55,535 nt of DNA from Deltaproteobacteria bacterium (GCA_019313245.1 JAFDBP010000234.1:1-55535); one strand, 5' to 3'; positions 12,373-33,716 are shown, counted from the first letter of the stretch. Program-made: numbers and translations. Notes: generated from the sequence alone by a model not told the origin.

Positions 12373-12826
12373 TTCTGACTCCACTTCACTTTTCGACCGA
12401 ACAGACTGCCGCCTTCAGCTCCGGTAATATGCGTAGTGTTGGTTTTTGCCGATATCACATCTCCCGATACGTTCGAGTGTCCTCGACTTCGCTCGCACAA
12501 TCAAGATGGTGCGGCCGCACTGCCCCCGTGACCGAGGCATATTGTCTCATTGCGCGCGATAGATGGCGTTATGCCTCACGCGCTGCCGCTGAATTGCCGG
12601 ATGCCGTTTCGTTTGCGCCTGCGGGTTCGACCGCAAAGTGTCTGCGGTCGGATCCGGGCGACTCGCGGATCCCAAAATGACCTTCCAGTCAGCCTTCGCG
12701 ATCTCATTCGACATCTTCCCGAACGCGTGTTATCGATCGCTGCGAGAGTGCCAGTGGTTTCGTCATCTGCGATTTCGCATCTCGCGGACGGGGATGGCCG
12801 CCGGAATGGAGAGAGCGGAGGCCGAT

Positions 12827-13612: not shown

Positions 13613-13641
13613 GTGATCGATTCGAAACCACTTCGGGCCCG

Positions 13642-15837: not shown

Positions 15838-16034
15838 GCCACCGCGCGAGGGCGTGGGTAGCTCGGTGCGCGCCAGAACGCCCTCGTTCTCGCGGGCTTG
15901 CGCGCTCTGAACCGAACTCGAACGAGTGCCCCCGGCCGCAATCCACGGGCTCTCGGATGGCTTCGGGCGGGCGCAAATTCGCCCAGGTCGGCTTCCTGAA
16001 ATAGGCGAAAATCGAGCGAAAACAGCGCCAAAAA

Positions 16035-16070
16035 GGTGATATCACCACCGCCAGCGTGGTGATATCACCA
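16035..16070. promoter_or_regulatory. twin palindromes GGTGATATCACC (16035-16046 and 16058-16069), candidate enhancer-binding-protein UAS
   Basis: Two perfect 12-bp palindromes, 23 bp centre to centre. The second extends to the 14-bp TGGTGATATCACCA. They lie about 90-115 bp upstream of the sigma-54 -24 element, with A/T tracts (about 16099-16143) in between. Confidence 0.6.
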
Positions 16071-16151
16071 GATTTCCGTGGGCGCACTTCCGAGGGCCCA
16101 AAAATGCTTCGTAACTAGCTGTTTTTGCGAGCACTTTTTTTGATGCCAGGT

Positions 16152-16167
16152 TGGCACATCGGTTGCA
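16152..16167 (+). promoter_or_regulatory. sigma-54 (RpoN) promoter, TGGCAC-N5-TTGCA
   Basis: TGGCACatcggTTGCA is an exact match to the -24/-12 consensus TGGCAC-N5-TTGCW. It ends 15 nt before the ATG at 16183. Confidence 0.75.
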
Positions 16168-16182
16168 CTTAAAGCGGCCGAG

Positions 16183-17364
16183 ATGATGAGGGAACCCCGG
16201 ATAACTTCACTGCTGGCGCTCTGGATCGCGCTGCTCGTGAGCCCGGCGTTCGCCGGCACGACGGCTTCGTTCCAGTATCCGCTCGCCAGCTTTTCGGGAC
16301 CGGTGGAATCCCTCTGGGCCCGGCTCGCGGTCGACCCCGAGCGAAACGAGATCTACACGCTGCGCCAGCGCAACAACGACATCCGGATCTATGACGAGCA
16401 CGGCATGGAGATCTTCGTGTTCGGCGAAGGCGTCGGCAGTGCCACCGACATCACGGTCGGCAACGGCGGCGACCTCTTCCTGCTCACCAGGGGATATCAG
16501 ACCGCGACCGTTCAGTTGCTGAACTACCGCGGTGAGCACGTCGCCGACATTCCGCTCAAAAACGTCCCGAGGGATTTTGCGGGAATCGTGCCCGACCGCA
16601 TCCAACACCAAAACGGTCTGCTCTATCTGGTCGATTCGAATGAGATGAAGGTGATCGTGGTCGACGAAGCGGGCCGCTTCGAGAAGGGCTACGACCTGGG
16701 CCGCGCGATCAAGCCCTTCATCCCCCGCGAAAAGGCGAGGCGAGAGCTGTCTGCGACCGACTGGCGCGCGCTTCAGCTCAACAACATCGACCTCAACGGC
16801 TTCACCGTCGACGCGCAGGGGAATCTGTTCTTCACCGTCCCGGTCCTGTTCCGAGCCTTCAAGCTATCGACTCACGGCGAGTTGACGGATTTCGGCAAGG
16901 CCGGCAGCGGACTCGGGAAGTTCGGTGTCATCGCGGGCATTGCCACCGACGAGTTCGGTTACGTCTACGTATCGGATCGGTTGCGGAGCGTGATCCTGGT
17001 CTTCAATAGCGACCTGGTATTTCAAACGGAGTTCGGTTACCGCGGCAACCTCCCGTCGAATTTGATCGTGCCAGACGATCTGGCAATTGATGGTAATGGC
17101 AATCTCTATGTTGGTCAGGCTGCATACAGAGGAGTGAGTGTATTCAAGGTAGTGCACCGAGACACAAGTTTTTCACGAGTGATTGAAGCAACACCAATCA
17201 ATGAAGTTGAAACATCCGACCGGAATATCGAAGAAGTAGAAGTAAGTCATCCGGAGTTCGCCGTCGATCTCGGAAGCGATGAAGCGTCGACGGATTCCGG
17301 GGATTCCAGTCGGAATACTGAGGCAGTTGGATCGCCTAACAATGAGGAAGGACAAAATGAGTAA
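16183..17364 (+). CDS. secreted NHL-repeat six-bladed beta-propeller protein with acidic C-terminal tail
   Basis: Signal peptide MMREPRITSLLALWIALLVSPAFAG. Repeated NHL-like blades (..LYLVDSNEMKVIVVD.., ..GYVYVSDRLRSVILVFN.., ..GNLYVGQAAYRGVSVFKV). The last 60 aa are D/E/S rich. Confidence 0.85.
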   Translation: MMREPRITSLLALWIALLVSPAFAGTTASFQYPLASFSGPVESLWARLAVDPERNEIYTLRQRNNDIRIYDEHGMEIFVFGEGVGSATDITVGNGGDLFLLTRGYQTATVQLLNYRGEHVADIPLKNVPRDFAGIVPDRIQHQNGLLYLVDSNEMKVIVVDEAGRFEKGYDLGRAIKPFIPREKARRELSATDWRALQLNNIDLNGFTVDAQGNLFFTVPVLFRAFKLSTHGELTDFGKAGSGLGKFGVIAGIATDEFGYVYVSDRLRSVILVFNSDLVFQTEFGYRGNLPSNLIVPDDLAIDGNGNLYVGQAAYRGVSVFKVVHRDTSFSRVIEATPINEVETSDRNIEEVEVSHPEFAVDLGSDEASTDSGDSSRNTEAVGSPNNEEGQNE

Positions 17365-18556
17365 AATCAATTGGGTAATGGTGCCGGGAATTGCTGCGCT
17401 GGCCGCGATTCTGACTCTCGGTCTTGCCGGCCCGGCAATGGCTCTGCACGCTGGCGGTGTCGCACACTGCGACGCGTGTCACAGCATGCACAACTCTCCC
17501 GACAATCCGGTTTCGGGAACCCCCAACAGTCTGCTGCTGAAGGGAACGGACGCCAGCTCGACCTGCCTGAACTGCCATGAGGGCACGGGCAGCTATGACG
17601 TCTACAGCAGCAACGGAGCCAACTTCTCGCCGGGTGGTGACTTCTTCTGGCTGGATGCGAACTATTCGAACATCGTTCGAGGCAACGCAGTTCCCTCCGA
17701 TCCGGATCAGTTCGGTCACAACGTGATCGCGGTCGACTTCGGTCTGGCGATCGACGGCAACAACGCTTCGGCTCCGGGCGGAACCTATCCCTCCGGCCTG
17801 CTGAGCTGCGCCAGCTGCCACGACCCGCACGGTCAGGTGAACGGCGGTACGGCCAATGGCATGGATCCGATCTCGGTATCGGGCTCCTACGGCGGAACCC
17901 CCGCCCCCGGCACGATCGCGGGCAACTATCGCCTGCTGGGCGACAACGGCTACGGCCTCGCGCCGGCCCCGATCGCCGTGACCGCTGGCTTCGGCGAGCT
18001 GGACGGTTCGATCGTCACCACGCCTGCTGACCCCAACGACCCGAACAGCGTTGACGAGTACGCGGTCAGCCATCCCGCATACGGACAGGGCATGTCCGAG
18101 TGGTGCGCGTCCTGCCACGGGAATTACATCAACGACAACCACAAGCATCCGGCAGGCAACGGCGAGTTCCTGAACGGTCAAGCCACCAACTACAACCAGT
18201 ATGTAGCCACGGGTGACTTCACCGGTTCCAGCGCCGATTCGTACGATGCACTGGTTCCCTTCGAGCTTCAGGAGACCGACAAGGCCACGCTGTTGGCTAG
18301 GGTCACCTCGCTGGAAGGCCCGAACACCAACAGCAACGTCATGTGCTTGACCTGCCACCGAGCGCATGCGTCGGCGTTCACCAACATCACCCGATGGAAC
18401 GTCGAGGACGAGCTGCTCGAGGACGGCTATCCGTCTGATGCGAACATGGTGACCATCGGTGCGGTGGCCCACGCTGACTACTACGGCCGTGACATTGCAA
18501 CGGACTACGGCACGTATCAGCGCTCCCTCTGCAACAAGTGCCACGTGAAGGACTGA
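17357..18556 (+). CDS. omcS: OmcS-family hexaheme c-type cytochrome (putative nanowire subunit)
   Basis: ATG at 17357 follows AGGAAGG and overlaps the NHL gene by 8 nt. Signal peptide ends ..GPAMA. Six CxxCH motifs (CDACH, CLNCH, CASCH, CASCH, CLTCH, CNKCH). The blocks LHAGGVAHCDACHSMHNS, YGQGMSEWCASCHG, HPAGNG, CLTCHRAHAS and YQRSLCNKCHVKD match my recollection of G. sulfurreducens OmcS. Confidence 0.9.
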   Translation: MSKINWVMVPGIAALAAILTLGLAGPAMALHAGGVAHCDACHSMHNSPDNPVSGTPNSLLLKGTDASSTCLNCHEGTGSYDVYSSNGANFSPGGDFFWLDANYSNIVRGNAVPSDPDQFGHNVIAVDFGLAIDGNNASAPGGTYPSGLLSCASCHDPHGQVNGGTANGMDPISVSGSYGGTPAPGTIAGNYRLLGDNGYGLAPAPIAVTAGFGELDGSIVTTPADPNDPNSVDEYAVSHPAYGQGMSEWCASCHGNYINDNHKHPAGNGEFLNGQATNYNQYVATGDFTGSSADSYDALVPFELQETDKATLLARVTSLEGPNTNSNVMCLTCHRAHASAFTNITRWNVEDELLEDGYPSDANMVTIGAVAHADYYGRDIATDYGTYQRSLCNKCHVKD

Positions 18557-18610
18557 GGCTATTTGTTGAGAGTGGTATGAAACAGCCGATTGAATCGGCG
18601 TAAGGAGAAG

Positions 18611-18648
18611 GGCTGGTGGTACATTCGTACCGCCAGCCTTTTTTCGCT
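18611..18648 (+). terminator. Rho-independent terminator downstream of omcS
   Basis: GGCTGGTGGTAC-attc-GTACCGCCAGCC forms a 12-bp stem with one G-U pair, followed by TTTTTTcgcTTTT. Confidence 0.75.
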
Positions 18649-18777
18649 TTTCTCTTCCGAACAGTTGTCTCAGGGCCGAGAGCCATCCCCGAAAGTGCTA
18701 CCAATAGAAATGGGCGGACACACCCCGCCTTCCCGGCGAGTCTGGTCCGGGACGGCTTCTGGAGTGGGCTAGCGGCG

Positions 18778-20178
18778 ATGGGAAGGAGAACTCTCGGTAT
18801 CCTGGTCGCGCTCGTCGCGACGGCCTGCGTCCCGCTCCCCCCCGCCTACGAGTCCGTCTCGCGCACGGATGGGCTGCTGCGCATCTACCTCCAGCCGCTC
18901 CCCCAGGAAGCGCACCGGCTGCGTTTCAGCATTACGGAAATCCTGGCCCTGCGGGAAGACGGCGGCGCCGTCCGGCTGCGACAAAACTTCAGCGAACTGC
19001 ACGGGGAGGATCTGGTCGGGTTGCAGAGACTGCTGGTCTCGGCGGCGTTGCCACCGGGTTCTTACACGGGAATATCGCTGCAGTTGGGCGCGGCGTCGCT
19101 GCTCGGCGAGGCGGGGAGAACGGACCTGTTGGCGCCCGAGGAGCCGCTGTTGATCGAGCAGGATTTCCGGGTGGTCCGGCAGGTATCCAGCACCCTGTTC
19201 CTTTCGCTGGATCCGGAGGAGCTGGTCAGCAGCGGCTTCCGTTTCACACCTCTCTTCTATCTGGCGAAATCTCGACGCCAACTGGAGAGCCTGCTGGGCT
19301 TCGCGACGAATACGGGCGGCAACGTCGTTTCGGTCTTCAACAAGCACACGATGGAGATCGTCGAGACGATCGCGACGGGCAGTGGCCCAATGGGAGCCGC
19401 CCTCGATCAGCGCAGAAAGTGGGTCTACGTCGCCCTCGCTGGGGACGCCGAAATCGCGGCCATCGACGTGGGCACCACGCAGATCCTCCAACGGATCCGA
19501 TTGAACTTTGGCGACGAGCCCGTCGAAGTCGGCCTGTCGCCCGATGGCGAATTCCTCGTATCGGCCAACCGGGGTTCGAACACGGCGAGCATCATGGACA
19601 CCGGCTCCCTGCGCGAACTCGACCGGGTTCGCCTGCCGTCGGAGCCGGGTTCGGTCGTGATGAGCACCGTCGAGCCGCGGGCCTTCCTGCTCCAGCCGTT
19701 GGCCAACACGATTTCCATCGTCGACTTCGATCAACGACGTGTCGTCTTGAGCCAGACGCTGGAAGAGTCGCCCCTGCGCGGCGCCGTCAACGAGGACGGC
19801 ACCAGCCTGTTCGTCATTTCAGAGAACTCTCCAAATCTACTGGTCATCGACCCCCGGAATCTGCGGGTTACCGAGAGAATCTTCGTCGGTAGAGGCGCGA
19901 CATCCATCGAGCTAGATCCCAAAACTGGTTTGATTTATATTGGGATGAGAATGGGAGGCGTTGCTGTCGTCGATCCGTCGTTATTGATGCCAATCGACAC
20001 ATTCAGAGTAGATGGCAATGCGGTCGCCCTGGATATCGATGGCGACGAGAACAACCTGTTCGTGGTGTCATCGAATCAGCGAACGATCCGGAAGCTGGGT
20101 CTGGTCAGCCAAAAGCTCATAGGGACCATCGAGGTGGAAGAAGGATGCTATGCCGTCGTTCTGATGGGCGGACGGTAG
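18778..20178 (+). CDS. lipoprotein: DUF4382-like N-domain plus YVTN/YncE-type beta-propeller
   Basis: ATG at 18778. MGRRTLGILVALVATAC carries a lipobox. Repeated about 40-aa blades (GSGPMGAAL..WVYVALAGDAEIAAIDV, PVEVGLSPDGEFLVSANRGSNTASIMD, ..LFVISENSPNLLVIDP..). No CxxCH. Confidence 0.8.
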   Translation: MGRRTLGILVALVATACVPLPPAYESVSRTDGLLRIYLQPLPQEAHRLRFSITEILALREDGGAVRLRQNFSELHGEDLVGLQRLLVSAALPPGSYTGISLQLGAASLLGEAGRTDLLAPEEPLLIEQDFRVVRQVSSTLFLSLDPEELVSSGFRFTPLFYLAKSRRQLESLLGFATNTGGNVVSVFNKHTMEIVETIATGSGPMGAALDQRRKWVYVALAGDAEIAAIDVGTTQILQRIRLNFGDEPVEVGLSPDGEFLVSANRGSNTASIMDTGSLRELDRVRLPSEPGSVVMSTVEPRAFLLQPLANTISIVDFDQRRVVLSQTLEESPLRGAVNEDGTSLFVISENSPNLLVIDPRNLRVTERIFVGRGATSIELDPKTGLIYIGMRMGGVAVVDPSLLMPIDTFRVDGNAVALDIDGDENNLFVVSSNQRTIRKLGLVSQKLIGTIEVEEGCYAVVLMGGR

Positions 20179-20371
20179 ATCCCCTTGCGCCTGGGGGGCG
20201 AGGTTGACCAGATCGAACCGCCGATCGATCGCTAGGCGGTCCGCATCGCCAGATGTACGCCGTGAATGCCCCGGCAGAGGTCAAGTGCGGACGCGCAAAA
20301 GCCGACAAAGATGGCTGGGAATCTGCGCGTTTTTTCGCTCTCAGGCTCCGCAGGCTTTCGACTCCAGGTGG

Positions 20372-22525
20372 ATGATGCCCCAGCAGGCCGCTCGGTGGAT
20401 TCAATTGGCATCGCTGGCCGCGCTCGTGATCGCCTCCGCACCTGCGAGCGTGATGGCCGAAGGCGGCCAGATCAGCGTGAGGGCGGATCTGGAGTACCAG
20501 TACGCGGATACCGAGATAAAGGACGAAGCCAGCGGCGAAAAGACGGATACTGATTTTTCCCGCTTCAAGCACAAGTACGACGTGGAACTGCGACAAGAGC
20601 TTCTCCCATTCCTGGAAATCCGCAGCGGCGGCATCTTCGAATTCATCGACTTGTCGTCGAATGGCGAAGGCTTCGATGCGGACAGTCACGAGAGAACCCG
20701 ATGGCTATTCGGGGAACTCAACCTGAACAACCCGCTCTACACCGCCTCGACCGCGTATCGCCGGCGAAAGTTCGAATTCAATCGCGACGACACACCGAAG
20801 CTCGAGCGCGACCGCGAAGAAATCGCCGGTCTGCTGAAGTGGCGCCCGGTCGGATTCCCCGAGATCGATCTGGACGTCGATACGACCCGTATCTGGGACA
20901 AGGCGAATACGGTGGATCAGACGGTCGACCGCGTGTTGCTCAAGAGTCGGTATGACTACCGGGATGTCCACTTCGACTACACCTACACGAGACTCGACAC
21001 CGACAGAAAGATCGAGGATGCCGGGTCGCTGAACCAGGTGCACGACGCAGGCGTGTCGTACACCGATGAATTCTTCGAGGATCGGCTCCAGCTGACCAGC
21101 GCCGCCAGGTTGAATTACCAGATCCTCGAGCCCCGCGGAAACGAAGTCGTCGAGCGGCCCACGCCGCTACCCGATACCGTGTTCTACTTTGCGATCGACG
21201 GCGATCCCAACACGCTCGAATTGGTCCCCCCCGCCTCTCTCACGGACATCAACATCGGTCAAGGTGGCGGATTCAACACGGTTTCGGTCGGCTTGTACTT
21301 CGATCTCCCAACCGCGGCGGACAGAATCCATATTGGTCTGGATGCCGATGAGACCGTGGTCTTCGACGTAGCGGAAGACTTCGTATGGACGGTGTCCTGG
21401 ACCGACGACACGGACCTGGAACTGGCGATCTGGAATACGTTCCCGGCCAACAGCGTGAAAGCGAAATACGACCCCATCGAAAATCGCTTCGAGATCTCGT
21501 TTCCCCGCGTCGAGAATGCGATCGCCATCAAGGTCGCCACCGATCCTCAACCCACCGCGACCGGCCCGATCCTGATCAGTCGCATCCAGGCTTTCACGAC
21601 GGTCGCCGTGAGCCCGGGAGAGGACCTCGAAGACATCGACCACCACTACTCGCTGGGGCTTCGCTGGGCGTTCTCGGACCGGACGGATGCCTCATACCAG
21701 GGTTATTTCAGGCATCAGAAATTCGAACCGTTCGACACCACCAAGAAGACGTTTACCAACGGCCTCAGCTTGCGGCACCAATTTCACCCGAAACTCGTCG
21801 GGAACGCGAAAGTCCTGCGGACGGACACGGATGAGACGGCTCGGGACGATCTGACGAATCACTCCTACAGCGCGTCCCTGAGAGCGGACTATTTCGACAC
21901 CCTGCGCCAGACGCTGACCTACAGCGGTTTTCACGACGATCTGGGCGGCCGCACCAGTTACTCGAACGCGATTCTCCTGCGCACCAATGCCGATCTATAC
22001 GAGGGCTGGAGCGCCATCATGGATTTGAGCTATTCCGCCAAGCACCTCACGGAGGGCGACGACCTCAACGACGCGACCGTCAGGCTCACCACGAATGTAG
22101 ACCCGCATCCGAAACTCAAATTCGTGTTCGATTACCGACTCTCGCACGTCGACCAGACGGGCCGGTCTTCGTGGCTCGACCACCGCGCCCGATTCCAGGG
22201 TTTCTGGGTCCCGTTGAGAACGCTGAGTTTCTTTGCCTCGGTCAGGCTGAGGGATAACGGATTCGACGACGAGGGCCTGCTGGTGTCTCAAAACTACTCC
22301 GTCAGCTGGTCGCCCTTTCCCGACGGCTTGCTTCGGTTCTCCGTCGGCTACAATCGGTCCGTGGACACGAGGGACAATACCGTCAGCGCCCTATCGCCGA
22401 GGATCGATTGGCAGGTCACGCGTACCACGCTCTTTACGCTTCTTTCCAATCTGGGAACGACCGAAACGGATCGAGAGACCATAGACGTGAAGAACGTTCG
22501 CTTGACGCTGAGAACATTCTTCTAG
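20372..22525 (+). CDS. large outer-membrane beta-barrel protein (717 aa)
   Basis: ATG at 20372. Signal peptide ..APASVMA. Long run of alternating hydrophobic/polar strands rich in Y/D/R/T. Terminal ..RLTLRTFF with a C-terminal Phe, a BAM-type signature. Confidence 0.8.
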   Translation: MMPQQAARWIQLASLAALVIASAPASVMAEGGQISVRADLEYQYADTEIKDEASGEKTDTDFSRFKHKYDVELRQELLPFLEIRSGGIFEFIDLSSNGEGFDADSHERTRWLFGELNLNNPLYTASTAYRRRKFEFNRDDTPKLERDREEIAGLLKWRPVGFPEIDLDVDTTRIWDKANTVDQTVDRVLLKSRYDYRDVHFDYTYTRLDTDRKIEDAGSLNQVHDAGVSYTDEFFEDRLQLTSAARLNYQILEPRGNEVVERPTPLPDTVFYFAIDGDPNTLELVPPASLTDINIGQGGGFNTVSVGLYFDLPTAADRIHIGLDADETVVFDVAEDFVWTVSWTDDTDLELAIWNTFPANSVKAKYDPIENRFEISFPRVENAIAIKVATDPQPTATGPILISRIQAFTTVAVSPGEDLEDIDHHYSLGLRWAFSDRTDASYQGYFRHQKFEPFDTTKKTFTNGLSLRHQFHPKLVGNAKVLRTDTDETARDDLTNHSYSASLRADYFDTLRQTLTYSGFHDDLGGRTSYSNAILLRTNADLYEGWSAIMDLSYSAKHLTEGDDLNDATVRLTTNVDPHPKLKFVFDYRLSHVDQTGRSSWLDHRARFQGFWVPLRTLSFFASVRLRDNGFDDEGLLVSQNYSVSWSPFPDGLLRFSVGYNRSVDTRDNTVSALSPRIDWQVTRTTLFTLLSNLGTTETDRETIDVKNVRLTLRTFF

Positions 22526-22551
22526 TTGGACCGCTTCGGAAGGGAGGTTTC

Positions 22552-23127
22552 GTGACGGCAAAACAGCGCCCCCTCAACAGGATCCTGATGACGCTCGCCC
22601 TCATCCCCCTCGTGAGCTGCGTGTCCGATGACGTCTTTACCGAGCCGAACATGGATTTCGGGTCGTTGCGGGCCGTTGCGGTCCTGCCGTTCAACAACTT
22701 CACGGCGGAAGAATTCGCGTCCGCGCGCGTCAGGGATGCCTTCTCCACCATGTTGCTCGCGACGGGGGCACTCTACGTCATTCCGCCCGGCGAGGTGGCC
22801 CGGGCGATGGGGGCGATCGGCCGAATCCCGCGCGAAGGGCCTTCCAGCGAGCAGATCAAACAGCTCGCAGACGCGCTCGATGCCGATGCCATCATCACCG
22901 GTGTGGTGTTGGAGTACGGGCCCGTTCGGTCCGGTTCGGCGTCTGCGAATGTGGTTTCGGTCAGTCTTCAGATGATCGAGAAGGCCAGCGGTATGGTGGT
23001 GTGGTCGGCATCTTCCACAAGGGGCGGAATCACGGTCTGGGATCGCCTTTTCGGCGGAGGCGGGGAGCCGATGAACGCGGTCACCGAAAAGGTGGTCAAT
23101 GATCTCCTGGACAAGCTCTTCGATTAG
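22552..23127 (+). CDS. lipoprotein with one LpoB/TolB-N/PelC-like domain
   Basis: GTG at 22552 follows GGGAGG. MTAKQRPLNRILMTLALIPLVSC carries a lipobox. AVAVLPFNNFT .. IITGVVLEYG .. SLQMIEKASGMVVWS. Confidence 0.75.
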   Translation: MTAKQRPLNRILMTLALIPLVSCVSDDVFTEPNMDFGSLRAVAVLPFNNFTAEEFASARVRDAFSTMLLATGALYVIPPGEVARAMGAIGRIPREGPSSEQIKQLADALDADAIITGVVLEYGPVRSGSASANVVSVSLQMIEKASGMVVWSASSTRGGITVWDRLFGGGGEPMNAVTEKVVNDLLDKLFD

Positions 23128-24322
23128 CATCCGGCCGGTCTGGGGGCTGCTCGCGCTACTGGCCCTGTTGTCGCTCTCGAGCTGCGCCTCGCGGCCGGAG
23201 CCGTCCGACGGGCCTCCCGAGCCTCAATTGCCGCCGCCGGCCGGGCAAGCCGTGAACTACGGCGACCTCATCGCGGTACTTCCGATCAGCAACCTCACCG
23301 GCACGTCCGCGCCACTCCGGGCGGTCGAGAAGGTGTTGCGCGCGCAGCTGGCTCGCTGGGGTTTCCGAATCGTCGATGCCGACAGCCTCGCGAAGGTCAT
23401 GGATCGATACAGGATTCGCGATACGGGCGGCCTGAGTCCCGGGGTATTTCGGGCGCTCAGGGAGGAGACGGGAGCAGTCGGCGTTCTGATGACGTCGCTG
23501 GAGGTCTTCTACGAAGATCGATTTCCGAGGATCTCGTTGATGTCGAGGCTGGTTGCGGGTGGAGATCCTCCGGAAATCGCCTGGATGAGCGGAGTCGGGC
23601 TGGCCGGCGACGGCGATGTCGGGCTCCTCGCACTCGGGCGGGTCGGAGATCCCGACGCATTGATGGAAATCGCCGTACGCTGTCTCGTCGACTCGCTGGC
23701 GGGATCACTTACCGAAACTCAGGCGCTAGGCTCTTCCGCTTCCCATAACCGAATGAGTGAATGCGACTCGCGCGGTGAAGTCGTGTATTCTTCACCGGAG
23801 GCGAACGGCAAGAGGAGGTTTCGTCCGCGCAAACCCTTGGGATCTCCGATCACCGATGTCAACAGGCGGTACAGCGTCGCGGTCATTCCCTTCTTGAACC
23901 TGAGCCAGCGAAGAAATGCCGGCAGGATCCTGGAGCTTCACTTCGTCAATCAGTTGCTCCGGAACGAATCCCTTTCAGTCGTCGATCCCGGGCTCGTCAG
24001 GCAGGAGTTGCTCGCGAACAGGGTCGTCATGGCAGCGGGCCCATCGTTGGAAAATGCGAGGGTTCTATCCAGTGACGAATCTCTGGGAGCCGACCTGATC
24101 TTTTCGGGGGTCGTATTCGACTATCAGGACGGGTACGGCATACCGAAAGTCGACTTTTCCCTGACCGTGATCGAAAAGGAGAGCCACAAGGTGGTTTGGT
24201 CTTCGCGGAGCTACAGCACGGGAACCGAAGGGGTTCTCTTCTTCGATCTGGGCAGGGTGTATACGGCGCATCAACTGGCAGCTGAAATGGCCAGAGGAGC
24301 AACCGAAGCGCTGAGCCGGTGA
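23099..24322 (+). CDS. lipoprotein with two tandem LpoB/TolB-N/PelC-like domains
   Basis: ATG at 23099 overlaps the upstream gene by 29 nt. Lipobox LSLSSC. Domain 1 has LIAVLPISNLTG. Domain 2 has SVAVIPFLNLSQ .. LIFSGVVFDYQ .. LTVIEKESHKVVWS, parallel to the preceding gene. Confidence 0.75.
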   Translation: MISWTSSSISIRPVWGLLALLALLSLSSCASRPEPSDGPPEPQLPPPAGQAVNYGDLIAVLPISNLTGTSAPLRAVEKVLRAQLARWGFRIVDADSLAKVMDRYRIRDTGGLSPGVFRALREETGAVGVLMTSLEVFYEDRFPRISLMSRLVAGGDPPEIAWMSGVGLAGDGDVGLLALGRVGDPDALMEIAVRCLVDSLAGSLTETQALGSSASHNRMSECDSRGEVVYSSPEANGKRRFRPRKPLGSPITDVNRRYSVAVIPFLNLSQRRNAGRILELHFVNQLLRNESLSVVDPGLVRQELLANRVVMAAGPSLENARVLSSDESLGADLIFSGVVFDYQDGYGIPKVDFSLTVIEKESHKVVWSSRSYSTGTEGVLFFDLGRVYTAHQLAAEMARGATEALSR

Positions 24323-24407
24323 GCCTTCCGAGAGGAAAGATATCCGCGCAAATGTTCGTGATGAAGCGACGAGATTCACGCCGTCGCGTTGGAGATGCAG
24401 AGAAACG

Positions 24408-26186
24408 ATGCAGAAGAACAAGCTAGCTCGGCTCATCCCCGCACTACTCATCCTCGCGGTACCTAGCTTTGCAACCGTCGAAGATGGCGAGCCGACCGGG
24501 GAAGGAGATGCCGCCGGCGTCGAACGGGCAGAAGAGGTGCTGATCACGCTGGAGGTTCCACTGGGATCGCCGCTGTTTACGGACATGCCGGTGGCGGTGG
24601 TAGACGAAGAGCCGATCACTTTTCGCGATCTCACGCGGCGGATCGCGTCGATCCACGAGGATATGGACGAAGGCGCGAAGCCGTCCAGAAAAAACTTCGC
24701 GAAGCTGCTGGATCGAGTCATTACGACGCAACTGGTCGTTCACGAAGCGCGAAACATCGGGCTCGACGAGCTGCCCGAAGTCGTCATTAGCATCGAAAAT
24801 GCGTCGACGGATCTCTTGATCTCGAGGCTGATGTCGCTGAAACTCGATGAAGTGGAGCCGGATCCGGACGAGGTGGACGCCCTCTACGAGGAGATGTCGC
24901 GTGAATTTTTGATGTCGACGGTGAAGCTCCCGAAGGAAGAGGATGCGTTGGCCTTTGAGGAACTGATCGGTTCCGGCGAGAACTTCGACGAAGTCGCAAC
25001 CCAATTCGCCGAAGAGGGCCGGGCGGAATTCGATGCGAGCGACAAGACCTTCATCAAACTGAAGGATCTGCTGCCGAGGATGGCCCAGACGGCCATCGAC
25101 ATGGAGGAGGGTTCCGTCAGCGAAATATTCTCCGATCGCGACGGCTTCCTCCTCTTCCACGTCGGAGCCGTGCGCGGCTATGACGATCCCGAGCTGCGGG
25201 AAGAGGCGCGGCAGAAGGTGCTGGAGCCCGCACAGAAGAAAGCCGCGCGCGAGTACGGGGAATATCTGAGGAACAAGTACGCCACGGTCGATGAGCGACT
25301 GCTGGAGAAGGTCGATTTCGAAGTGAAGAAGACCGGCTTCCTGTCACTCGGCAAGGAAGAGCCGGTCGATTTCGCCGAACTCGAAAAGGACGAGCGCGTG
25401 GTTGCGACGACGCAAACCGATCCGCCGCTCACCGTGACGATCGGAGAGTTGGCGACCGCGGTGCGGGAATCGTATCACCACGGGATCGAGACGTCGTCCG
25501 TAAGGAGCAAGAAGCTCAACGCCAAGAAGCAGATCCTGCTGAAGAATATGTTGTTCAAGGAGGCGGCTTTGGCCGAAGCTCGAAACCTGGGACTCGACCA
25601 GACGAGCTCCTACCTCGACACGATGGACGAGTACACCACTTCGCTGCTCTTCGAGGTGTTCGTCAAGAAGGTGATCGTGCCCGATGTGGCGATTACCGAC
25701 GCCGATGTGCGCGAATACTTCGAGGGGCACCTGGACGAGTTTTCGACTCCCGCGATGTTCAGGCTGAACGCGATCGCCTTCGGCGAACGGGAAGGCGCCG
25801 AGCGCGCTCTGGGCAAGCTCGAGAAGCGAGCCGATTTCAAGTGGGTTTCCGCCAATTCGCCGGGCAGGATCGACGTCGTGAGCGGCGAATCCTTCGATTT
25901 CGACGGGAAACTGTTGGCCGTGACGGCCCTGCCCGAAGACCTGCACGAGAGCATCGAAGACTCCAAGCAGGGAGACGCCGTGATCTACTCCGACGGCAAG
26001 GGTTACCACCATGTGATTGTGGTCAGCAAGGTCTTTCCCTCGGAAACGCGGCCGTACGAGGACGTCAAGGGCTCGGTTGCTCGAATCATCTTCGAGCAGA
26101 AGCTCAAGGCATTGGTCGAAGACTGGAGCGGAAAGTTGGCAGAGGCATACGAAACGCGGATATTCATCACGGGGCTGGATGATTGA
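24408..26186 (+). CDS. periplasmic SurA/PpiD-like chaperone with parvulin-type PPIase domain
   Basis: Signal peptide MQKNKLARLIPALLILAVPSFA. Long helical SurA-N-like region. A C-terminal rotamase-like block (ADVREYFEGHLDEFSTPAMFRLNAIAF .. GYHHVIVVSKV). Confidence 0.75.
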   Translation: MQKNKLARLIPALLILAVPSFATVEDGEPTGEGDAAGVERAEEVLITLEVPLGSPLFTDMPVAVVDEEPITFRDLTRRIASIHEDMDEGAKPSRKNFAKLLDRVITTQLVVHEARNIGLDELPEVVISIENASTDLLISRLMSLKLDEVEPDPDEVDALYEEMSREFLMSTVKLPKEEDALAFEELIGSGENFDEVATQFAEEGRAEFDASDKTFIKLKDLLPRMAQTAIDMEEGSVSEIFSDRDGFLLFHVGAVRGYDDPELREEARQKVLEPAQKKAAREYGEYLRNKYATVDERLLEKVDFEVKKTGFLSLGKEEPVDFAELEKDERVVATTQTDPPLTVTIGELATAVRESYHHGIETSSVRSKKLNAKKQILLKNMLFKEAALAEARNLGLDQTSSYLDTMDEYTTSLLFEVFVKKVIVPDVAITDADVREYFEGHLDEFSTPAMFRLNAIAFGEREGAERALGKLEKRADFKWVSANSPGRIDVVSGESFDFDGKLLAVTALPEDLHESIEDSKQGDAVIYSDGKGYHHVIVVSKVFPSETRPYEDVKGSVARIIFEQKLKALVEDWSGKLAEAYETRIFITGLDD

Positions 26187-26242
26187 TCGGACGGCACTGA
26201 AGTTGGATCGCATTTCGAAAGCCGTTTAACCTGGGCGCAGCG

Positions 26243-28231
26243 ATGTCGATAGTGAATTCAAAACGCTACAGATCTCTTATCGTTGGGATGGTGGGCTTTC
26301 TGTGCCTATGTCTCGCCCTGTCATTTCTCGCGACCCCTGCGCACGCGAAAAAGCGCAAGTTCAAGAAAAGAGATTGCGTGGATTGTCACGAAGAATACGT
26401 CGACAAGTACTTTTCGATGAAGAACATCCACGAGGTCGTCGAAGACCGGGAATGCGAAAGTTGCCATCTTCGACACGGCGTCGTCGGCAAACTTCTGCTG
26501 AAGGCGGAAGGCAACGATATCTGTTTCGAATGTCACAGTGCCGAAGACCTCGGACTCGATGCCCCGGGAGTTCATACGGCGCTGGTCAAGGGCACGTGTG
26601 CCTCCTGTCACAACCCACACGCATCGGATTCCCCGTACCTGCTGAGCGCCGAAGGCAATGCGATCTGTTACGAGTGCCACGAGCAAGACGATTACACGCG
26701 CGAGGTAGTTCACTCGGTGATCGAAGACGACGGCTGCGGGGGTTGCCATCGCTCGCACGCCTCGCCGGAGCAGAACCTGCTCAAGATGGCGCCGACGGAG
26801 CTCTGCGTTTCGTGCCACGAAAGCGATGATGGCGCTTTCAGCAAAGCGCACGCGGGTTACCCCGTAGCGCAGAAGTCCTGCACGAATTGCCACAATCCGC
26901 ATTCGTCGGACCTGCCCACACTGTTGAAATCGAGCGTTCACGATCCGGTACTCGGCGGCGAATGTGAGGCCTGCCACAATGCTCCCGCTGACGAAGACGC
27001 TTTCGAAGTCACCGACGAGAGCGCGGAGCTCTGTGGGGGTTGCCACGATTCTGTGGATCTCTACGAGTCCGGCAATGTGCAACACGGGCCGTTCGAGGAG
27101 GGGGCGTGTCTGGACTGTCACGATCCACATGCCGCTGAGGCGGAGACGCTGCTCGCGGAGCCCGGCAATCAGCTCTGCTTTACGTGCCACGAAGATACGA
27201 GTACGGGAGTGAGAAATCCGCACGATCCGGTCGAGAGCGCCGATGGCTGCCTTTCCTGCCACGCTCCGCATGCGGCCGCTCACGACCAGCTCTTGAAAGT
27301 TACCGGCGGCGAACTGTGTTTTTCGTGTCACGAGGAGGCCGCAGAGGCGGGGCGGCAGCTGGCGAATCAGCACGAGCCGTTCGAGGAGCAGCGATGCGTC
27401 GATTGCCACGATCCGCACGGCTCGAATGCTCCCGCCATTCTCAACGGCAGGCCGAGCGAAGTTTGTTATTCGTGTCACGCAGAAGTGGAAAATGACTTTT
27501 CGCAGCGCTATGTGCACACCCCGGTGCGGATGGGTGATTGCATCGGGTGCCACAGCGGTCACGGCTCGAGCGAAAGCAACCTCTTGAAGGCCGCCGATGC
27601 GGATCTCTGCGCCACATGCCACGAGGAATTCATGCAGGTAGCGCCGGAGATGCGCGTCCACGATCCCTTCGCGGATGGCGAATGCCTGACGTGCCACGCT
27701 CCTCATGCGAGTTCGTTCGAGGGGGTTTTGGTCAGTGAGCAGGCTTCGGTGTGCGCGGATTGCCACGACGGCGTCGGGACTGCAGTGGAGGGAGAGAAGA
27801 GCGCGCATCAACCGGTGGTTACCGGTGATTGCTCGAGTTGTCACAACCCGCACAAGGCGGCATTGGATTCGATGTTACTCGCGGTGACTCCCGATCTGTG
27901 CCTGAGTTGTCACGACGATCTGACGCGGAAGATGGAAACGGAGCGCGTGCACGAGCCCGTTGAAAACGATTGCGTGCAGTGTCATGTGGCACATCGCTCG
28001 AGCGAAGTCAGTCTGCTCAATCTTCCAGTCCAGGCTCTCTGCAGCGAGTGCCACGATGTAGAGGATGCTTCGTTCAGGAAATCCCACATCTACATCGACG
28101 CAGCCGTGATGGACTGCGTCAGTTGCCACGCTCCGCACACTTCGAAGGATCGAAGCTTCTTCAAGGAGAACATGCATTCACCTTTCGTGAAGCGGAACTG
28201 CGGCGAGTGCCACGTCGAGGGGCCGGAGTAG
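26243..28231 (+). CDS. multiheme c-type cytochrome, 26 CxxCH motifs
   Basis: 662 aa with an N-terminal signal/anchor. I counted 26 CxxCH. They alternate between plain CxxCH and CxxCHxxH[AGS]S types, a paired-CXXCH / c7-c3-like module array. Confidence 0.95.
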   Translation: MSIVNSKRYRSLIVGMVGFLCLCLALSFLATPAHAKKRKFKKRDCVDCHEEYVDKYFSMKNIHEVVEDRECESCHLRHGVVGKLLLKAEGNDICFECHSAEDLGLDAPGVHTALVKGTCASCHNPHASDSPYLLSAEGNAICYECHEQDDYTREVVHSVIEDDGCGGCHRSHASPEQNLLKMAPTELCVSCHESDDGAFSKAHAGYPVAQKSCTNCHNPHSSDLPTLLKSSVHDPVLGGECEACHNAPADEDAFEVTDESAELCGGCHDSVDLYESGNVQHGPFEEGACLDCHDPHAAEAETLLAEPGNQLCFTCHEDTSTGVRNPHDPVESADGCLSCHAPHAAAHDQLLKVTGGELCFSCHEEAAEAGRQLANQHEPFEEQRCVDCHDPHGSNAPAILNGRPSEVCYSCHAEVENDFSQRYVHTPVRMGDCIGCHSGHGSSESNLLKAADADLCATCHEEFMQVAPEMRVHDPFADGECLTCHAPHASSFEGVLVSEQASVCADCHDGVGTAVEGEKSAHQPVVTGDCSSCHNPHKAALDSMLLAVTPDLCLSCHDDLTRKMETERVHEPVENDCVQCHVAHRSSEVSLLNLPVQALCSECHDVEDASFRKSHIYIDAAVMDCVSCHAPHTSKDRSFFKENMHSPFVKRNCGECHVEGPE

Positions 28232-28235
28232 GCGG

Positions 28236-29519
28236 ATGAGACCTGTGAGATTCCGATCGTTCTGGGTTTTTCTGGGCGCAGCGGCCTGGCTGGTCGTCTT
28301 CGCGGGGACTCAGGCGAACGCGGCCAACGATTTCCGGTTGAAGAAGACCTCGATTACGGACGCATGCGTAGAGTGCCACGACGAGTTCGTGGAAATCTTG
28401 AAGCGGCCTTTCCTGCACACCCCGGTCGCCAAGGGGGACTGCGCGGGCTGTCACAACCCACATACCTCGAAGCGCGCGATGCTATTGGATGCCGAATCCG
28501 GCAAGATCTGCCAGAGCTGTCACGAAGAGATGTTCGAAGGGGAAGCGCAGAGTTCCCACCGGATATTTGTGCAAGGCAAGTGCTTTTCATGCCACGATGC
28601 GCACGGCTCTGAAAACAAGCAGAATCTGATCCGAGCCGGGAGTGCGCTCTGCATCGAGTGTCACGACGAGCTGGGCCAAAAGCTCGCGACCAACAAATTC
28701 GAGCACGATCCCGTGACGGACAGTTGCGTGGAGTGTCACGATCCCCACGCATCGAAGAAGAGCGACAACCTTCTGGTGGATGCACAGCCCTCCCTGTGTC
28801 TGGATTGTCACGAGGCGAACGACGCGTCGTTCAAACAGGTGCACAAGAACTACCCCGTCGAAAAAGCTCGCTGTACGGCGTGCCACAATCCGCACGGCTC
28901 GAACACTGCAGGTATCCTGTTCGACAACGTTCACGAGCCGGTTGCCGAGCGGGCATGTGGCGAGTGCCACACCAAATCGACGTCATCGTCACCGTTTGCC
29001 CTCAAGGACGTCGGCCTCGATCTCTGCGAGGGTTGCCACTACGAAACGGTGGTCGATGCGCTCAACAAATCGATGGTGCACTGGCCGATGCTCGACGACA
29101 GAGGTTGTGTCAACTGCCATGCGCCACACGCCTCGGAAGAGGACTTTCTGCTGAAGGGAACGCAAGCCGAAGTCTGCAGCGAATGCCATACGGACACGGT
29201 GGATCGCCAGAAGCGATCGCGGACCGAGCACCCACCGATCGCGGAAGGGGCATGTGGTGAATGCCACGCTCCCCACAGCTCAGACAATACCTTCCTGATC
29301 AACCAGCCGACCGCGATCGAAGTCTGCGCAAAATGTCACGAATGGCAGAGGCATTCGTCGCATCCGATCGGCGAGGAGATCGTCGATCCCCGAAACGCCA
29401 ACGTCACCCTGGAATGCTCGAGTTGTCACCGGACGCACGGAACCGAATATGAGCACTTCATCTACTTCCGAACGAAGGACGAGCTGTGCGTCCAGTGCCA
29501 TACGAATCTTCGGAGATGA
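28236..29519 (+). CDS. multiheme c-type cytochrome, 16 CxxCH motifs (paralog of the 26-heme protein)
   Basis: 427 aa. ATG lies 4 nt after the upstream stop. Signal peptide ..GTQANA. 16 CxxCH counted, with the same alternating module pattern. Confidence 0.95.
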   Translation: MRPVRFRSFWVFLGAAAWLVVFAGTQANAANDFRLKKTSITDACVECHDEFVEILKRPFLHTPVAKGDCAGCHNPHTSKRAMLLDAESGKICQSCHEEMFEGEAQSSHRIFVQGKCFSCHDAHGSENKQNLIRAGSALCIECHDELGQKLATNKFEHDPVTDSCVECHDPHASKKSDNLLVDAQPSLCLDCHEANDASFKQVHKNYPVEKARCTACHNPHGSNTAGILFDNVHEPVAERACGECHTKSTSSSPFALKDVGLDLCEGCHYETVVDALNKSMVHWPMLDDRGCVNCHAPHASEEDFLLKGTQAEVCSECHTDTVDRQKRSRTEHPPIAEGACGECHAPHSSDNTFLINQPTAIEVCAKCHEWQRHSSHPIGEEIVDPRNANVTLECSSCHRTHGTEYEHFIYFRTKDELCVQCHTNLRR

Positions 29520-29523
29520 CAGA

Positions 29524-30426
29524 TTGAGGCGAACCTACGTTGCTATCGCTGCCCTGGCCCTGTTCCTGTGGATGCCACAGATCGCAGGCGCCGCGGAATA
29601 CGGCTTCAAATGGGTGACGTCGATCTACGCGGATGCCGACGGCATCGGACTGAAACGCCCCGAGGGTGTCGCGTGTGGCGAGAAACGCGTCGTGGTTGCC
29701 GACACCGGCAACCGGCGCCTCGTGCGCTACGGCTACGATGGTGACGAGGTGAGCGCCGAGAGGGTATTTCCGCTCGGAAAATCGAGTCCGACCGTCCTTC
29801 AATTCAACTCGAAGGGCGACCTCTATTTTCTCGACGGAAGAGACCGCCGGATCGTCGTATTGAAGGCGAGCGGCGAGCGAGTCGGATCCCTGAATCCGAA
29901 GAGCATGCCATCCTCCAAGGAAATCGTTCCGAAGAGCTTCCGGATCGACGGAGACGACAACATCTATATTCTCGACATCTTTTCCCAGCAAGTGATCATT
30001 CTCGATCCGGATTGGCAACTTTCCAGAACGATTCCGCTTCCGAAGGACCGCGGCTTCTTCTCGGACCTCGCGATCGATCGGCAGGGAAAGATCTACGTCG
30101 TGGACAGTGTCGAGGCGGTCGTCCACGTCGCGGTGAAGGGTGCGGAGACATTCACGCGATTCACCGAGAGCATGAAGGAGCTCGTGAATTTCCCGGCCAG
30201 ATTGACGATCGACGCTCAAGGAGTTCTGTATCTGGTCGACCAGAACGGCAGTGGTCTCGGACTGGTCGCCCCGGATGGTGCCTCACTCGGGCGGCGGCTT
30301 GGGCTCGGCTGGAACAAGAGCGGGCTCTATTACCCATCCCAGATTTGCATCAGCGCCGGCGGCAACGTGTTCATCGCCGACCGGAACAACAACCGCGTTC
30401 AGATGTTCACGGTATCTGCGGACTGA
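29524..30426 (+). CDS. secreted NHL-repeat beta-propeller protein
   Basis: TTG at 29524, with GGAG 9 nt upstream, gives MRRTYVAIAALALFLWMPQIAGA. The longer track ORF overlaps the cytochrome gene. Blades: RVVVADTGNRRLVRY, DLYFLDGRDRRIVVL, NIYILDIFSQQVIILD, KIYVVDSVEAVVHV, VLYLVDQNGSGLGLV, NVFIADRNNNRVQMF. Confidence 0.8.
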   Translation: MRRTYVAIAALALFLWMPQIAGAAEYGFKWVTSIYADADGIGLKRPEGVACGEKRVVVADTGNRRLVRYGYDGDEVSAERVFPLGKSSPTVLQFNSKGDLYFLDGRDRRIVVLKASGERVGSLNPKSMPSSKEIVPKSFRIDGDDNIYILDIFSQQVIILDPDWQLSRTIPLPKDRGFFSDLAIDRQGKIYVVDSVEAVVHVAVKGAETFTRFTESMKELVNFPARLTIDAQGVLYLVDQNGSGLGLVAPDGASLGRRLGLGWNKSGLYYPSQICISAGGNVFIADRNNNRVQMFTVSAD

Positions 30427-30447
30427 CGCTGGTCCGACGGAAAATTC

Positions 30448-33680: not shown

Positions 33681-33716
33681 TGACTGCTCTGGCCGGAATG
33701 GGTCTGCCGGGCAAAC

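Follow-up and report, generated by a model that had tools for sequence, protein, structure and literature searches.

A probable osc-type cluster for the biogenesis of an OmcS-family cytochrome filament in an uncultured bacterium outside Geobacter

Introduction

The closest described system is the osc (omcS-companion) cluster of Geobacter sulfurreducens (Shen et al. 2025, Cell Chem Biol 32:239), quoted here from its summaries in PMC13194489 and PMC12977616. As given there, oscB-K correspond to GSU2502-GSU2493, omcS to GSU2504 and omcT to GSU2503; within the cluster oscC is GSU2501, oscI GSU2495 and oscJ GSU2494 (PMC13194489). PMC13194489 proposes that OscH serves subunit folding, that OscEFG are needed for OmcS secretion and that OscD controls filament morphology. 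Genes GSU2500-2493 form a block of eight that invariably follows a GSU2501-like hexaheme gene, and OscC (GSU2501) itself has no demonstrated filament (PMC12977616). The published route for charging OmcS runs via PpcA-E (PMC10954620). The locus of Citrifermentans bremense likewise counts as osc in the literature (Shen et al. 2025; PMC12977616), and the osc-type system has already been described as 'widespread and ancient'.

An earlier note on the DNA analysed here had referred to such a cluster in Geobacter, correctly so according to these sources. It had also called the roles of most components essentially uncharacterised, a statement that the proposals for OscD, OscEFG and OscH make outdated.

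Locus organisation

The window, i.e. the whole stretch of 55,535 nt that was analysed, contains ten tightly packed co-directional ORFs on the + strand (16183-30426), termed B to K:

B, 16183-17364, + strand: secreted beta-propeller of the NHL/SBBP type whose C-terminal tail is acidic (OscB position)
C, 17357-18556 within an ORF open from 17279, + strand: hexaheme cytochrome of the OmcS family, 399 aa with the start MSKINW
D, ORF 18616-20178, likely ATG at 18778, + strand: YncE-like beta-propeller, probable lipoprotein (OscD position)
E, ORF 20204-22525, ATG at 20372 giving 717 aa, + strand: outer-membrane beta-barrel (OscE position)
F, ORF 22408-23127, likely GTG at 22552, + strand: small LpoB/GNA1162/PelC-like lipoprotein (OscF position)
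G, 23099-24322, + strand: lipoprotein containing two domains like that of F (OscG position)
H, 24408-26186, + strand: parvulin-type PPIase whose N-terminus is SurA-like, a periplasmic chaperone (OscH position)
I, 26243-28231, + strand: 26-heme MtrA/DmsE-type cytochrome (OscI position)
J, 28236-29519, + strand: 16-heme cytochrome, MtrA/DmsE-type like I (OscJ position)
K, 29449-30426, + strand: NHL-repeat beta-propeller (OscK position), true start probably downstream of 29449

The ten same-strand genes agree with the earlier note, and the domain calls bear out the content and order that it had given (propeller, hexaheme, propeller lipoprotein, barrel, lipoproteins, PPIase, cytochromes, propeller). 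No gene begins at 16035, which had been taken as the start of the locus. A sigma-54 promoter has two GGTGATATCACC palindromes upstream of it, and the first of these lies at this position. The 48 CxxCH sites counted previously are found again in C (6), I (26) and J (16). Elsewhere in the window CxxCH occurs only as single sites, in the frames of cbb3 subunits and of a histidine kinase, hence chance is excluded for the 48. The cbb3 oxidase ascribed to the genome is represented by ccoNOP at 52484-55535. The host DNA has a GC content of ~62%. The host is not Geobacter; its nearest relatives are uncultured 'Deltaproteobacteria' or 'Myxococcales' MAGs.

C is a member of the OmcS family

C is a full-length homolog of OmcS (phmmer against PDB, E=1.1e-65, residues 31-399 aligned to OmcS 2-407) with 46% identity and several loop deletions. 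OmcS (6ef8/6nef) was the only match of the PDB sequence search; the PDB set searched contains no other structure of this family. In the alignment C keeps 12/12 heme cysteines and 12/12 heme-ligand histidines, the distal histidines being paired as H2/H31, H16/H45, H110/H121, H147/H158, H257/H264 and H335/H337 (OmcS/C). Mature C is predicted to begin with LHAGGVAHCDACH, comparable to FHSGGVAECEGCH in OmcS. Foldseek with the structure model of C, which is of low confidence (pLDDT 59), returned 6ef8_A as sole PDB match with E<=0.001 (2.8e-15, TM 0.54). Sequence and fold thus agree with the OmcS-like nature claimed for the 399-aa cytochrome.

His16 of OmcS is reported as the inter-subunit heme ligand, binding heme 5 of the adjacent subunit in the OmcS structure (Wang et al. 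2019). The position is conserved in 96% of the aligned six-heme family members and corresponds to H45 of C, which, presumably, would ligate heme 5 of the neighbouring subunit if the OmcS structure applies. To our knowledge polymerisation has been shown experimentally for G. sulfurreducens OmcS alone among OmcS homologs. C is a putative filament subunit.

The proposed clustering of C with OmcS stands as far as structure and homology are concerned. In the family tree C falls into a clade apart from OmcS, grouped with 'first copy after B' proteins; the deep branches are too short to assign C to OmcS itself rather than to OmcT, OscC or OmcJ. C is the only OmcS-family hexaheme copy in the window and lies between B and D, which is the slot of GSU2501 in G. 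sulfurreducens. Moreover, some Geobacter genomes hold only a GSU2501-like gene together with the eight-gene block (PMC12977616). Slot, tree position and these genomes favour a reading in which C is an OscC-type paralogue that forms no filament, e.g. a primer, an anchor or a periplasmic intermediate, the true subunit being encoded elsewhere or absent. We regard this as quite improbable. In 17 two-copy loci of its clade C groups with the first copy, located right after B, and not with the copy adjacent to D, and the OmcS-like copy of C. bremense (order B-C1-C2-D) holds that first slot, too. The residue aligned to His16 is kept, and a terminator right behind C (see below) fits an abundant structural subunit. 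Finally, GSU2501-type proteins may themselves form an uncharacterised nanowire, as suggested in PMC12977616.

Conservation of gene order

Of 152 genome loci, drawn from many phyla, about 100 show the order B-C-(C)-D-E-F-G-H-I-J-(K). All ten genes are collinear in loci of C. bremense (L106), Geomonas, Anaeromyxobacter terrae, Nitrospirota, Acidobacteriota and Rokubacteria. Adjacencies were counted 103 times for C-D, 91 for B-C, 89 for D-E, 88 for E-F, 87 for F-G, 69 for G-H and 63 for H-I. E-F-G was never split in the surveyed loci, and at least 11 loci are split between G and H such that E and I lie on divergent operons. Companion genes thus flank omcS homologs in a conserved order, and the likeness to the osc module that the earlier note had seen holds gene by gene against the C. 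bremense cluster and throughout these about 100 loci.

Every product is homologous to its counterpart in the Geobacteraceae clusters compared, with 23-51% identity. The comparison with the type cluster of G. sulfurreducens is indirect, by way of C. bremense, other Geobacteraceae clusters and the gene descriptions in the literature; the best match of an OmcS search of the genome contigs reached 67%, and G. sulfurreducens was not among the matches. Based on this analysis the locus is probably an osc-type cluster with which an uncultured, non-Geobacter host would build an OmcS-family cytochrome filament.

B matches Pfam SBBP (4.7e-7) and NCBIfam ScyF-NHL (2e-13), has a signal peptide in its translation and is 36% identical to the gene at the same position in C. 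bremense. D matches Pfam YNCE (1.4e-9) and TIGR03866 (3e-22), shares 32% identity with its C. bremense homolog and contains a plausible lipobox, VATAC, within MGRRTLGILVALVATAC. K matches Pfam NHL (3.8e-15) and is 44% identical to the K homolog of Geomonas edaphica (L074).

Candidate export machinery

The confident AlphaFold2 model of E (pLDDT 85.6) is a beta-barrel of ~28 strands with an insert of ~150 aa. No Pfam or NCBIfam family was found for E, whose own family comprises 1428 representatives at 50% identity. F shows Pfam matches to LpoB (3e-6) and GNA1162-like (4e-6) as well as a weak match to PelC (9h80_C, 2.4e-4), a lipobox LVSC and 51% identity to its C. bremense homolog. G, for which no Pfam or NCBIfam family was found either, has a lipobox LSSC. 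F and the C-terminal domain of G are homologous (E=3e-13), and the N-terminal domain of G resembles its C-terminal one weakly (E=0.007). Of the '1+2' LpoB-like domains counted before, F and the C-terminal domain of G are therefore supported, the third one weakly so. The likeness of F and G to PelC/LpoB/GNA1162 together with the constantly neighbouring barrel gene suggests that both may form a periplasmic funnel on porin E. H matches Rotamase_2 (3.1e-21), Rotamase (3.9e-6), weakly SurA_N (2.4e-3) and the NCBIfam EpsD-family PPIase (9.5e-15).

Giant cytochromes I and J

I contains 26 CxxCH motifs and 54 histidines, enough by sequence for bis-His ligation of all 26 hemes; J contains 16 motifs and 33 histidines. 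I matches TIGR03508 (1.4e-87). The count of 26 hemes is retained in 38 of 45 complete I homologs, that of 16 hemes in 18 of 19 complete J homologs. One locus (L061) encodes an I-J fusion with 42 hemes, which could be a sequencing or assembly artefact given that the gap between I and J is only 4 nt. Fixed heme counts across phyla and the fusion fit a wire of defined length.

Such wires could also be sheathed by E and cross the outer membrane as in MtrAB, with C being a surface reductase, monomeric or oligomeric, or with the filament plugging into the socket. The best Foldseek match of E is indeed MtrB (6r2q_B, E=1.5e-9, TM 0.41/0.45), with every other large barrel at TMq <= 0.30 among the 50 matches listed. 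In the same vein, I finds its best PDB sequence match in the Mtr complex (chain 6r2q_A, E=4.8e-21), both I and J exceed the cutoff of the DmsE/MtrA family, and the heme counts and the 42-heme fusion suit a conduit as well. However, the TM score is modest and E has no sequence similarity to MtrB. E never adjoins I: a direct neighbourhood of an MtrA/DmsE-type cytochrome gene and a porin gene was looked for, and F, G and H always separate I/J from E. The loci with E and I in divergent operons, in which E-F-G stays intact, also speak against a conduit, and the lone fusion counts for little if it is an artefact. In addition, OscEFG are reported to be necessary for OmcS secretion (PMC13194489). We thus consider a conduit unlikely and retain the filament biogenesis cluster as the preferred reading.

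None of PpcA-E is encoded in the window, and the locus is devoid of heme-maturation genes, Sec/Lol/BAM components and an inner-membrane quinol oxidase. The 'charging' role of I and J and the 'self-contained' character of the locus, as the earlier note had put it, are inferences that overstate the case.

Regulation

The regulatory features of the locus are:

16035-16046 and 16058-16069: palindrome GGTGATATCACC, two copies, candidate enhancer (UAS) of a sigma-54 activator
16152-16166, + strand: sigma-54 -24/-12 promoter TGGCACATCGGTTGC, 17 nt ahead of the ATG of B
18604-18645, + strand: hairpin (19-bp stem, then a T-run) directly 3' of C
30448-31836, - strand: sigma-54-dependent response regulator of the NtrC type, transcribed towards the operon
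31836-33680, - strand: HAMP-PAS histidine kinase (HAMP, PAS, HisKA, HATPase_c), partner of the response regulator

The promoter is one of two exact matches to the sigma-54 consensus in the window. Of 86 related loci, 53 have an equivalent motif ahead of B, compared to 3.2% of random 550-nt segments. The paired palindromes are located 83-117 nt upstream of the -24 element and are the only exact copies of GGTGATATCACC in the window, with 0.2 expected. Many related loci possess paired TGGTGAAATCACCA-like sites at this same distance. The response regulator consists of Response_reg, Sigma54_activat and HTH_8 domains and probably activates the promoter at 16152. About 40 related loci have a homolog of it scoring >500 bits beside the cluster, mostly in the order HK>RR>B>C, the kinase being co-conserved; one relative (L153) has the same convergent layout of regulator and operon.

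The hairpin behind C (folding z = -3.9) is a candidate intrinsic terminator or attenuator. In related loci 70% of the hairpins after hexaheme genes fold at <= -20 kcal/mol versus 38% after other cluster genes. GC-rich hairpins with T-runs are also seen behind the hexaheme genes of related loci.

Proposed mode of action

The HAMP-PAS kinase would activate its NtrC-type partner, which, bound to the two TGGTGA(A/T)ATCACCA sites, would fire the sigma-54 promoter before B. The terminator hairpin after C may keep the subunit in excess over the machinery. C would be exported via Sec, loaded with six hemes and aided in folding by the PPIase H. It might then traverse the outer membrane through a complex that barrel E (~28 strands) would form with the ring-type lipoproteins F and G, and polymerise head to tail outside the cell. 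I and J, of fixed length with 26 and 16 hemes, could serve as periplasmic heme wires that pass electrons to the base of the filament.

Comparison with known systems

C and OmcS (6EF8/6NEF) have in common their length, six CxxCH motifs in the same order, six distal histidines, the N-terminal xHxGGVAxCxxCH and the C-terminal QRxLCNKCHxKD. The osc cluster of G. sulfurreducens shows the same ten-gene order as the locus described here, including the PPIase, the 26-heme and the second giant cytochrome. It has the omcS/omcT pair upstream as well, whereas the window locus has a single hexaheme. The window proteins represent a diverged clade, with C sharing 46% identity with OmcS and 38% with the C. 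bremense copies. Moreover, the cluster is driven from a sigma-54 promoter and has an NtrC-type two-component system of its own, unlike Geomonas/Geobacteraceae loci, beside which no such system was detected and neighbouring response regulators reach only about 50 bits. The host, too, differs, belonging to an uncultured 'Myxococcales/Deltaproteobacteria'-labelled lineage with a cbb3 oxidase and ~62% GC.

With MtrCAB of Shewanella (6R2Q) the locus shares a barrel modelled at the size of MtrB and cytochromes built from MtrA/DmsE-like heme-pair repeats. In contrast, it lacks an MtrC/OmcA-type surface decaheme, its barrel and cytochrome genes are apart, the cytochromes carry 26 and 16 hemes instead of 10, and two PelC/LpoB-like lipoproteins and a PPIase are added. 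PelB-PelC and curli CsgG are resembled weakly by the F and G domains (PelC/LpoB/GNA1162, E about 1e-4 to 1e-6), and as in PelB-PelC the F/G genes always adjoin a large-barrel gene. The cargo would be a folded, heme-loaded 40-kDa protein here rather than a polysaccharide or unfolded curlin. Taken together, the locus would be a further case of the already described osc system, in an uncultured bacterium outside Geobacter, and no new kind of system.

A ten-gene cluster corresponding to oscB-K

Ten co-directional ORFs lie on the plus strand at 16183-30426 and are spaced between an 8-nt overlap and ~220 nt. They are lettered B-K by position match to the omcS-companion (osc) genes of Geobacter sulfurreducens, a cluster defined by Shen et al. 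2025 (Cell Chem Biol 32:239), here taken from the summary in PMC13194489. According to this summary oscI is GSU2495, oscJ is GSU2494 and OscEFG are assigned to secretion. The window genes correspond one-to-one to oscB-K, hence their identification as an osc cluster is secure.

Genes of the cluster (all plus strand), assignments from profile searches, and protein identity to Citrifermentans bremense R1 (locus L106; B-I) or Geomonas edaphica (locus L074; J and K)
B: SBBP/NHL-type propeller; 36%
C, 17357-18556: hexaheme cytochrome, 6 CxxCH; 38%
D: YncE-like propeller; 32%
E, 20372-22525: barrel, no curated family; 23%
F: LpoB/GNA1162-like lipoprotein; 51%
G, 23099-24322: lipoprotein, no curated family; 35%
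H: PPIase, two parvulin domains, weakly matching SurA_N; 33%
I, 26243-28231: giant cytochrome, 26 CxxCH, paired-CXXCH repeats of DmsE/MtrA type; 45%
J, 28236-29519: giant cytochrome, 16 CxxCH, paired-CXXCH repeats of DmsE/MtrA type; 50%
K: NHL propeller; 44%

C, I and J together carry 48 CxxCH sites, and a six-frame scan of the 55.5-kb window found no further multi-heme frame. A signal peptide or lipobox is present in all ten products. ORFs, CxxCH counts and profile searches agree with every item of the ten-gene description in the earlier note, and its naming of an osc/OmcS nanowire locus was right as well. The sole correction to that description concerns position 16035, where its range begins, which marks a regulatory palindrome and no gene start. 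Its view of the roles of most components as essentially uncharacterised is outdated; the osc system has already been published, and as widespread.

The hexaheme cytochrome belongs to the OmcS family

[quoted passage not shown] Compared with all PDB sequences, the 399-aa hexaheme C matched OmcS (6ef8/6nef) alone, end to end (E=1.1e-65). In an alignment of the window protein, OmcS and ~220 homologs from genome loci, C and OmcS share 46% identity. All 12 heme cysteines and the six proximal histidines are aligned between the two, as are another six histidines (OmcS H2, H16, H110, H147, H257 and H335 equal H31, H45, H121, H158, H264 and H337 of C, respectively), and the heme-ligand positions of C are 96-100% conserved among the aligned six-heme family members. 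His16 of OmcS, the counterpart of H45, is the ligand to heme 5 of the neighbouring subunit, as the 2019 structure of Wang and colleagues is reported to show. Since the ligands including this residue are conserved, the chemistry needed for polymerisation would be present in C.

The AlphaFold2 model of C, calculated without hemes, is poor (pLDDT 59, pTM 0.61) and was used for a fold search only. The sole significant PDB fold retrieved with it was 6ef8_A (E=2.8e-15, TM 0.54).

The window carries one hexaheme, located in the slot between B and D. UPGMA and NJ trees were built from 225 hexahemes. Shallow clusters are clear and distance clustering places C in a clade apart from OmcS, but the backbone branches measure just 0.00-0.06, so no orthology to OmcS or to its paralogue OscC (GSU2501) is claimed. 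In the 17 two-copy loci of the clade of C, the copy directly after B groups with the window protein, whereas the copy adjoining D forms a separate cluster. OmcS is likewise closer to the first than to the second hexaheme copies of Geobacteraceae loci (56% versus 50% in L106, 63% versus 52% in L081). Both comparisons favour C as a representative of the 'primary' subunit type, with the reserve set by the short backbone branches. The comparison with Geobacter was made via the C. bremense and Geomonas loci: genome contigs were queried with OmcS rebuilt from the PDB alignment, G. sulfurreducens was not among the matches and the best of these reached 67%.

Gene order is conserved and falls into two modules

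Each GTDB species was represented by one genome, and these genomes were scanned twice, once with a hexaheme profile built from C and once with OmcS, yielding 152 loci onto which the ten window proteins were mapped. The order B-C-(C)-D-E-F-G-H-I-J-(K) was found in ~100 of them, with adjacencies counted for C-D (103), B-C (91), D-E (89), E-F (88), F-G (87), G-H (69) and H-I (63). By label, the carriers belong to Desulfobulbaceae, Desulfuromonadales, Geobacteraceae (Geomonas, Citrifermentans), Desulfobacterales and Syntrophales, moreover to Nitrospirota, Anaeromyxobacter/Myxococcales, Acidobacteriota, Rokubacteria and others. Cultured carriers include Malonomonas rubra DSM 5091 (L070), Anaeromyxobacter terrae SG22 (L151) and Geomonas species.

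Only one breakpoint recurs, that between G and H. In 11 loci the arrangement is K<J<I<H< B>C>D>E>F>G>; examples of the split layout are, among others, L009, L019, L021, L024, L028, L030 and L031. Hence B-G (subunit, propellers and channel) and H-K (PPIase, giant cytochromes and NHL propeller) behave as separable modules. The PPIase H goes with the giant cytochromes rather than with the hexaheme. Directly upstream of the cluster, an 802-aa GDSL-lipase/TPR protein (13429-15837) is syntenic in close relatives (1324 bits in L001, 672 bits in L019), not family-wide.

Host and genomic context

Short metagenome contigs encode the closest hexaheme (93% identity), while the best match from a genome is 78% identical ('Deltaproteobacteria' MAG); named relatives are 'Myxococcales bacterium' MAGs. 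Genes for a cbb3 oxidase (ccoNOP) are located at 52484-55535, where the window ends before ccoP is complete. The best match to CcoN, 83% identical, came from an uncultured Myxococcales MAG, and a mixture of Gamma- and Betaproteobacteria followed at 74-80%. These matches place the host only loosely. The cluster and the adjacent two-component system (16000-34000) have a GC content of 58-61% versus 64-68% in the flanks, a difference that would fit lateral acquisition. Searches of the window for tRNAs and Rfam families were negative, and in passing no sign of a mobile element was noticed.

Predicted regulation by sigma-54 and a two-component system

Candidate regulatory features of the cluster
from 16035: two exact GGTGATATCACC palindromes, 83-117 nt upstream of the sigma-54 promoter
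16152-16166: perfect sigma-54 -24/-12 element TGGCACATCGGTTGC, 17 nt ahead of the start codon (ATG) of B
18604-18645: hairpin with a 19-bp stem and T-run, directly 3' of C
30448-31836, minus strand: NtrC-type response regulator, adjoining the operon, convergent and downstream
31836-33680, minus strand: HAMP-PAS histidine kinase, beside the response regulator

The distance of the -12 element to the ATG implies a very short leader. The sigma-54 consensus has just two exact matches in the window, and among 86 related loci 53 have a comparable motif ahead of B, versus 3.2% of random segments. Exact copies of GGTGATATCACC are confined to the two palindromes (0.2 expected in the window). Distant loci carry paired TGGTGAAATCACCA-like sites at the same distance from the promoter, and in both the window and these loci an AT-rich, IHF-like stretch separates the paired sites from the promoter. 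Judged by these motifs, two TGGTGA(A/T)ATCACCA sites about 95 and 118 nt upstream of a consensus -24/-12 element constitute a predicted enhancer-dependent sigma-54 architecture of the classic kind, kept across distant taxa. Such an architecture upstream of B is also seen in L001, L003, L009, L031, L120 and L137. A scan for sigma-70 promoters gave no excess over shuffled sequence. The second exact sigma-54 consensus, TGGCACGCGACTTGC (44446-44460, minus strand), is located ~25 nt upstream of a minus-strand ORF predicted from translation only (44061-44420).

Homologs of the response regulator scoring >500 bits flank the cluster in ~40 loci, mostly in the order kinase, regulator, B; the layout of the window recurs in the close relative GCA_975972805.1. 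Kinase and regulator are co-conserved beside osc-type clusters in most non-Geobacteraceae lineages. In contrast, the regulators adjoining the clusters of Geomonas and other Geobacteraceae are unrelated (~50 bits). The pair probably represents dedicated regulators of the cluster. At the relative's locus L153, which shares the convergent layout, the pair lies at 11722-13676. A literature search for reports of sigma-54 or two-component control of omcS returned nothing relevant.

Hairpins similar to the one behind C follow 70% of hexaheme genes versus 38% of other cluster genes, and in distant loci the architecture is conserved while the sequence differs. This fits a putative terminator or attenuator by which the subunit would be made in excess over the machinery, and suggests that attenuation at the hairpin sets the ratio between the two. 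A GC-rich hairpin with T-run is found after the hexaheme genes of L001, L003, L009, L067, L120 and L151.

Barrel, lipoproteins and giant cytochromes

The model of E is confident (pLDDT 85.6) and consists of a ~28-strand barrel with an inserted domain of ~150 residues. Its best PDB fold match is MtrB in the Mtr porin-cytochrome complex of Shewanella (6r2q; E=1.5e-9, TM 0.41/0.45), whereas TonB-dependent receptors, ushers and LptD reach a TMq of <=0.30 among the 50 matches listed. Neither E, its insert nor either half of G had a Pfam match at E<=10. A profile of E retrieved 1428 representatives at 50% identity from public data, 775 of them at E<=1e-30; OscE-like barrels are a large family without a Pfam or NCBIfam model. 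The OscG-like lipoprotein likewise has no such model. F shows weak similarity to PelC. G carries another copy of the F domain C-terminally (E=3e-13) and a weakly similar one N-terminally (E=0.007 between the two halves of G).

By sequence, I is closest in the PDB to chain A of 6r2q, the Mtr entry that also holds MtrB (E=4.8e-21). I contains 54 histidines for 26 hemes and J 33 for 16 hemes, enough for bis-His ligation throughout, at ~25 residues per heme in both. The heme numbers are nearly constant across phyla: 38 of 45 complete homologs of I keep 26 hemes, and 18 of 19 complete homologs of J keep 16. One 42-heme fusion of I and J was found (L061, contig JAJDAO010000005, 11112-14297, minus strand), which could be an assembly artefact. 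The fusion suggests that I and J may be joined in series into a wire of fixed length.

The likeness of both E and I to the same Mtr entry, together with the heme numbers and the fusion, raises the idea that E, I and J may form an Mtr-like electrical socket, either as a rival or as a complement to the secretion role. As a sole role this is countered by the gene order, in which E-F-G are never split and I/J go with H and K, and by the literature assignment of OscEFG to secretion. In its fullest form, E and I/J would be an MtrAB-like, envelope-spanning 42-heme socket that anchors and charges an OmcS-type filament, the secretion channel doubling as electrical junction under a sigma-54 two-component switch. 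We consider this fullest form improbable; if true, it would explain how the nanowire is connected to the cell.

Comparison with known osc systems

Every Geobacter genome having a GSU2501-like hexaheme carries the eight-gene block GSU2500-2493 downstream of it, G. bremensis among them, and some genomes have the GSU2501-like gene only, without omcS (PMC12977616). In the same work GSU2501 is considered possibly ancestral and possibly the subunit of an uncharacterised nanowire. The window locus represents a compact, single-subunit osc version in a diverged lineage with a cbb3 oxidase. As such it might be used as a minimal cassette to reconstitute the system heterologously, and to test whether wires are formed by a hexaheme placed between B and D, the question raised in PMC12977616. 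Leads on regulation, on the balance of subunit and machinery and on wiring come from the sigma-54 enhancers, the post-subunit terminator, the 26/16 heme counts, the B-G and H-K modules and the OscE and OscG families lacking a curated model. These comparative by-products leave the osc classification unchanged: the locus is a further osc/OmcS nanowire-biogenesis cluster and not a new system.
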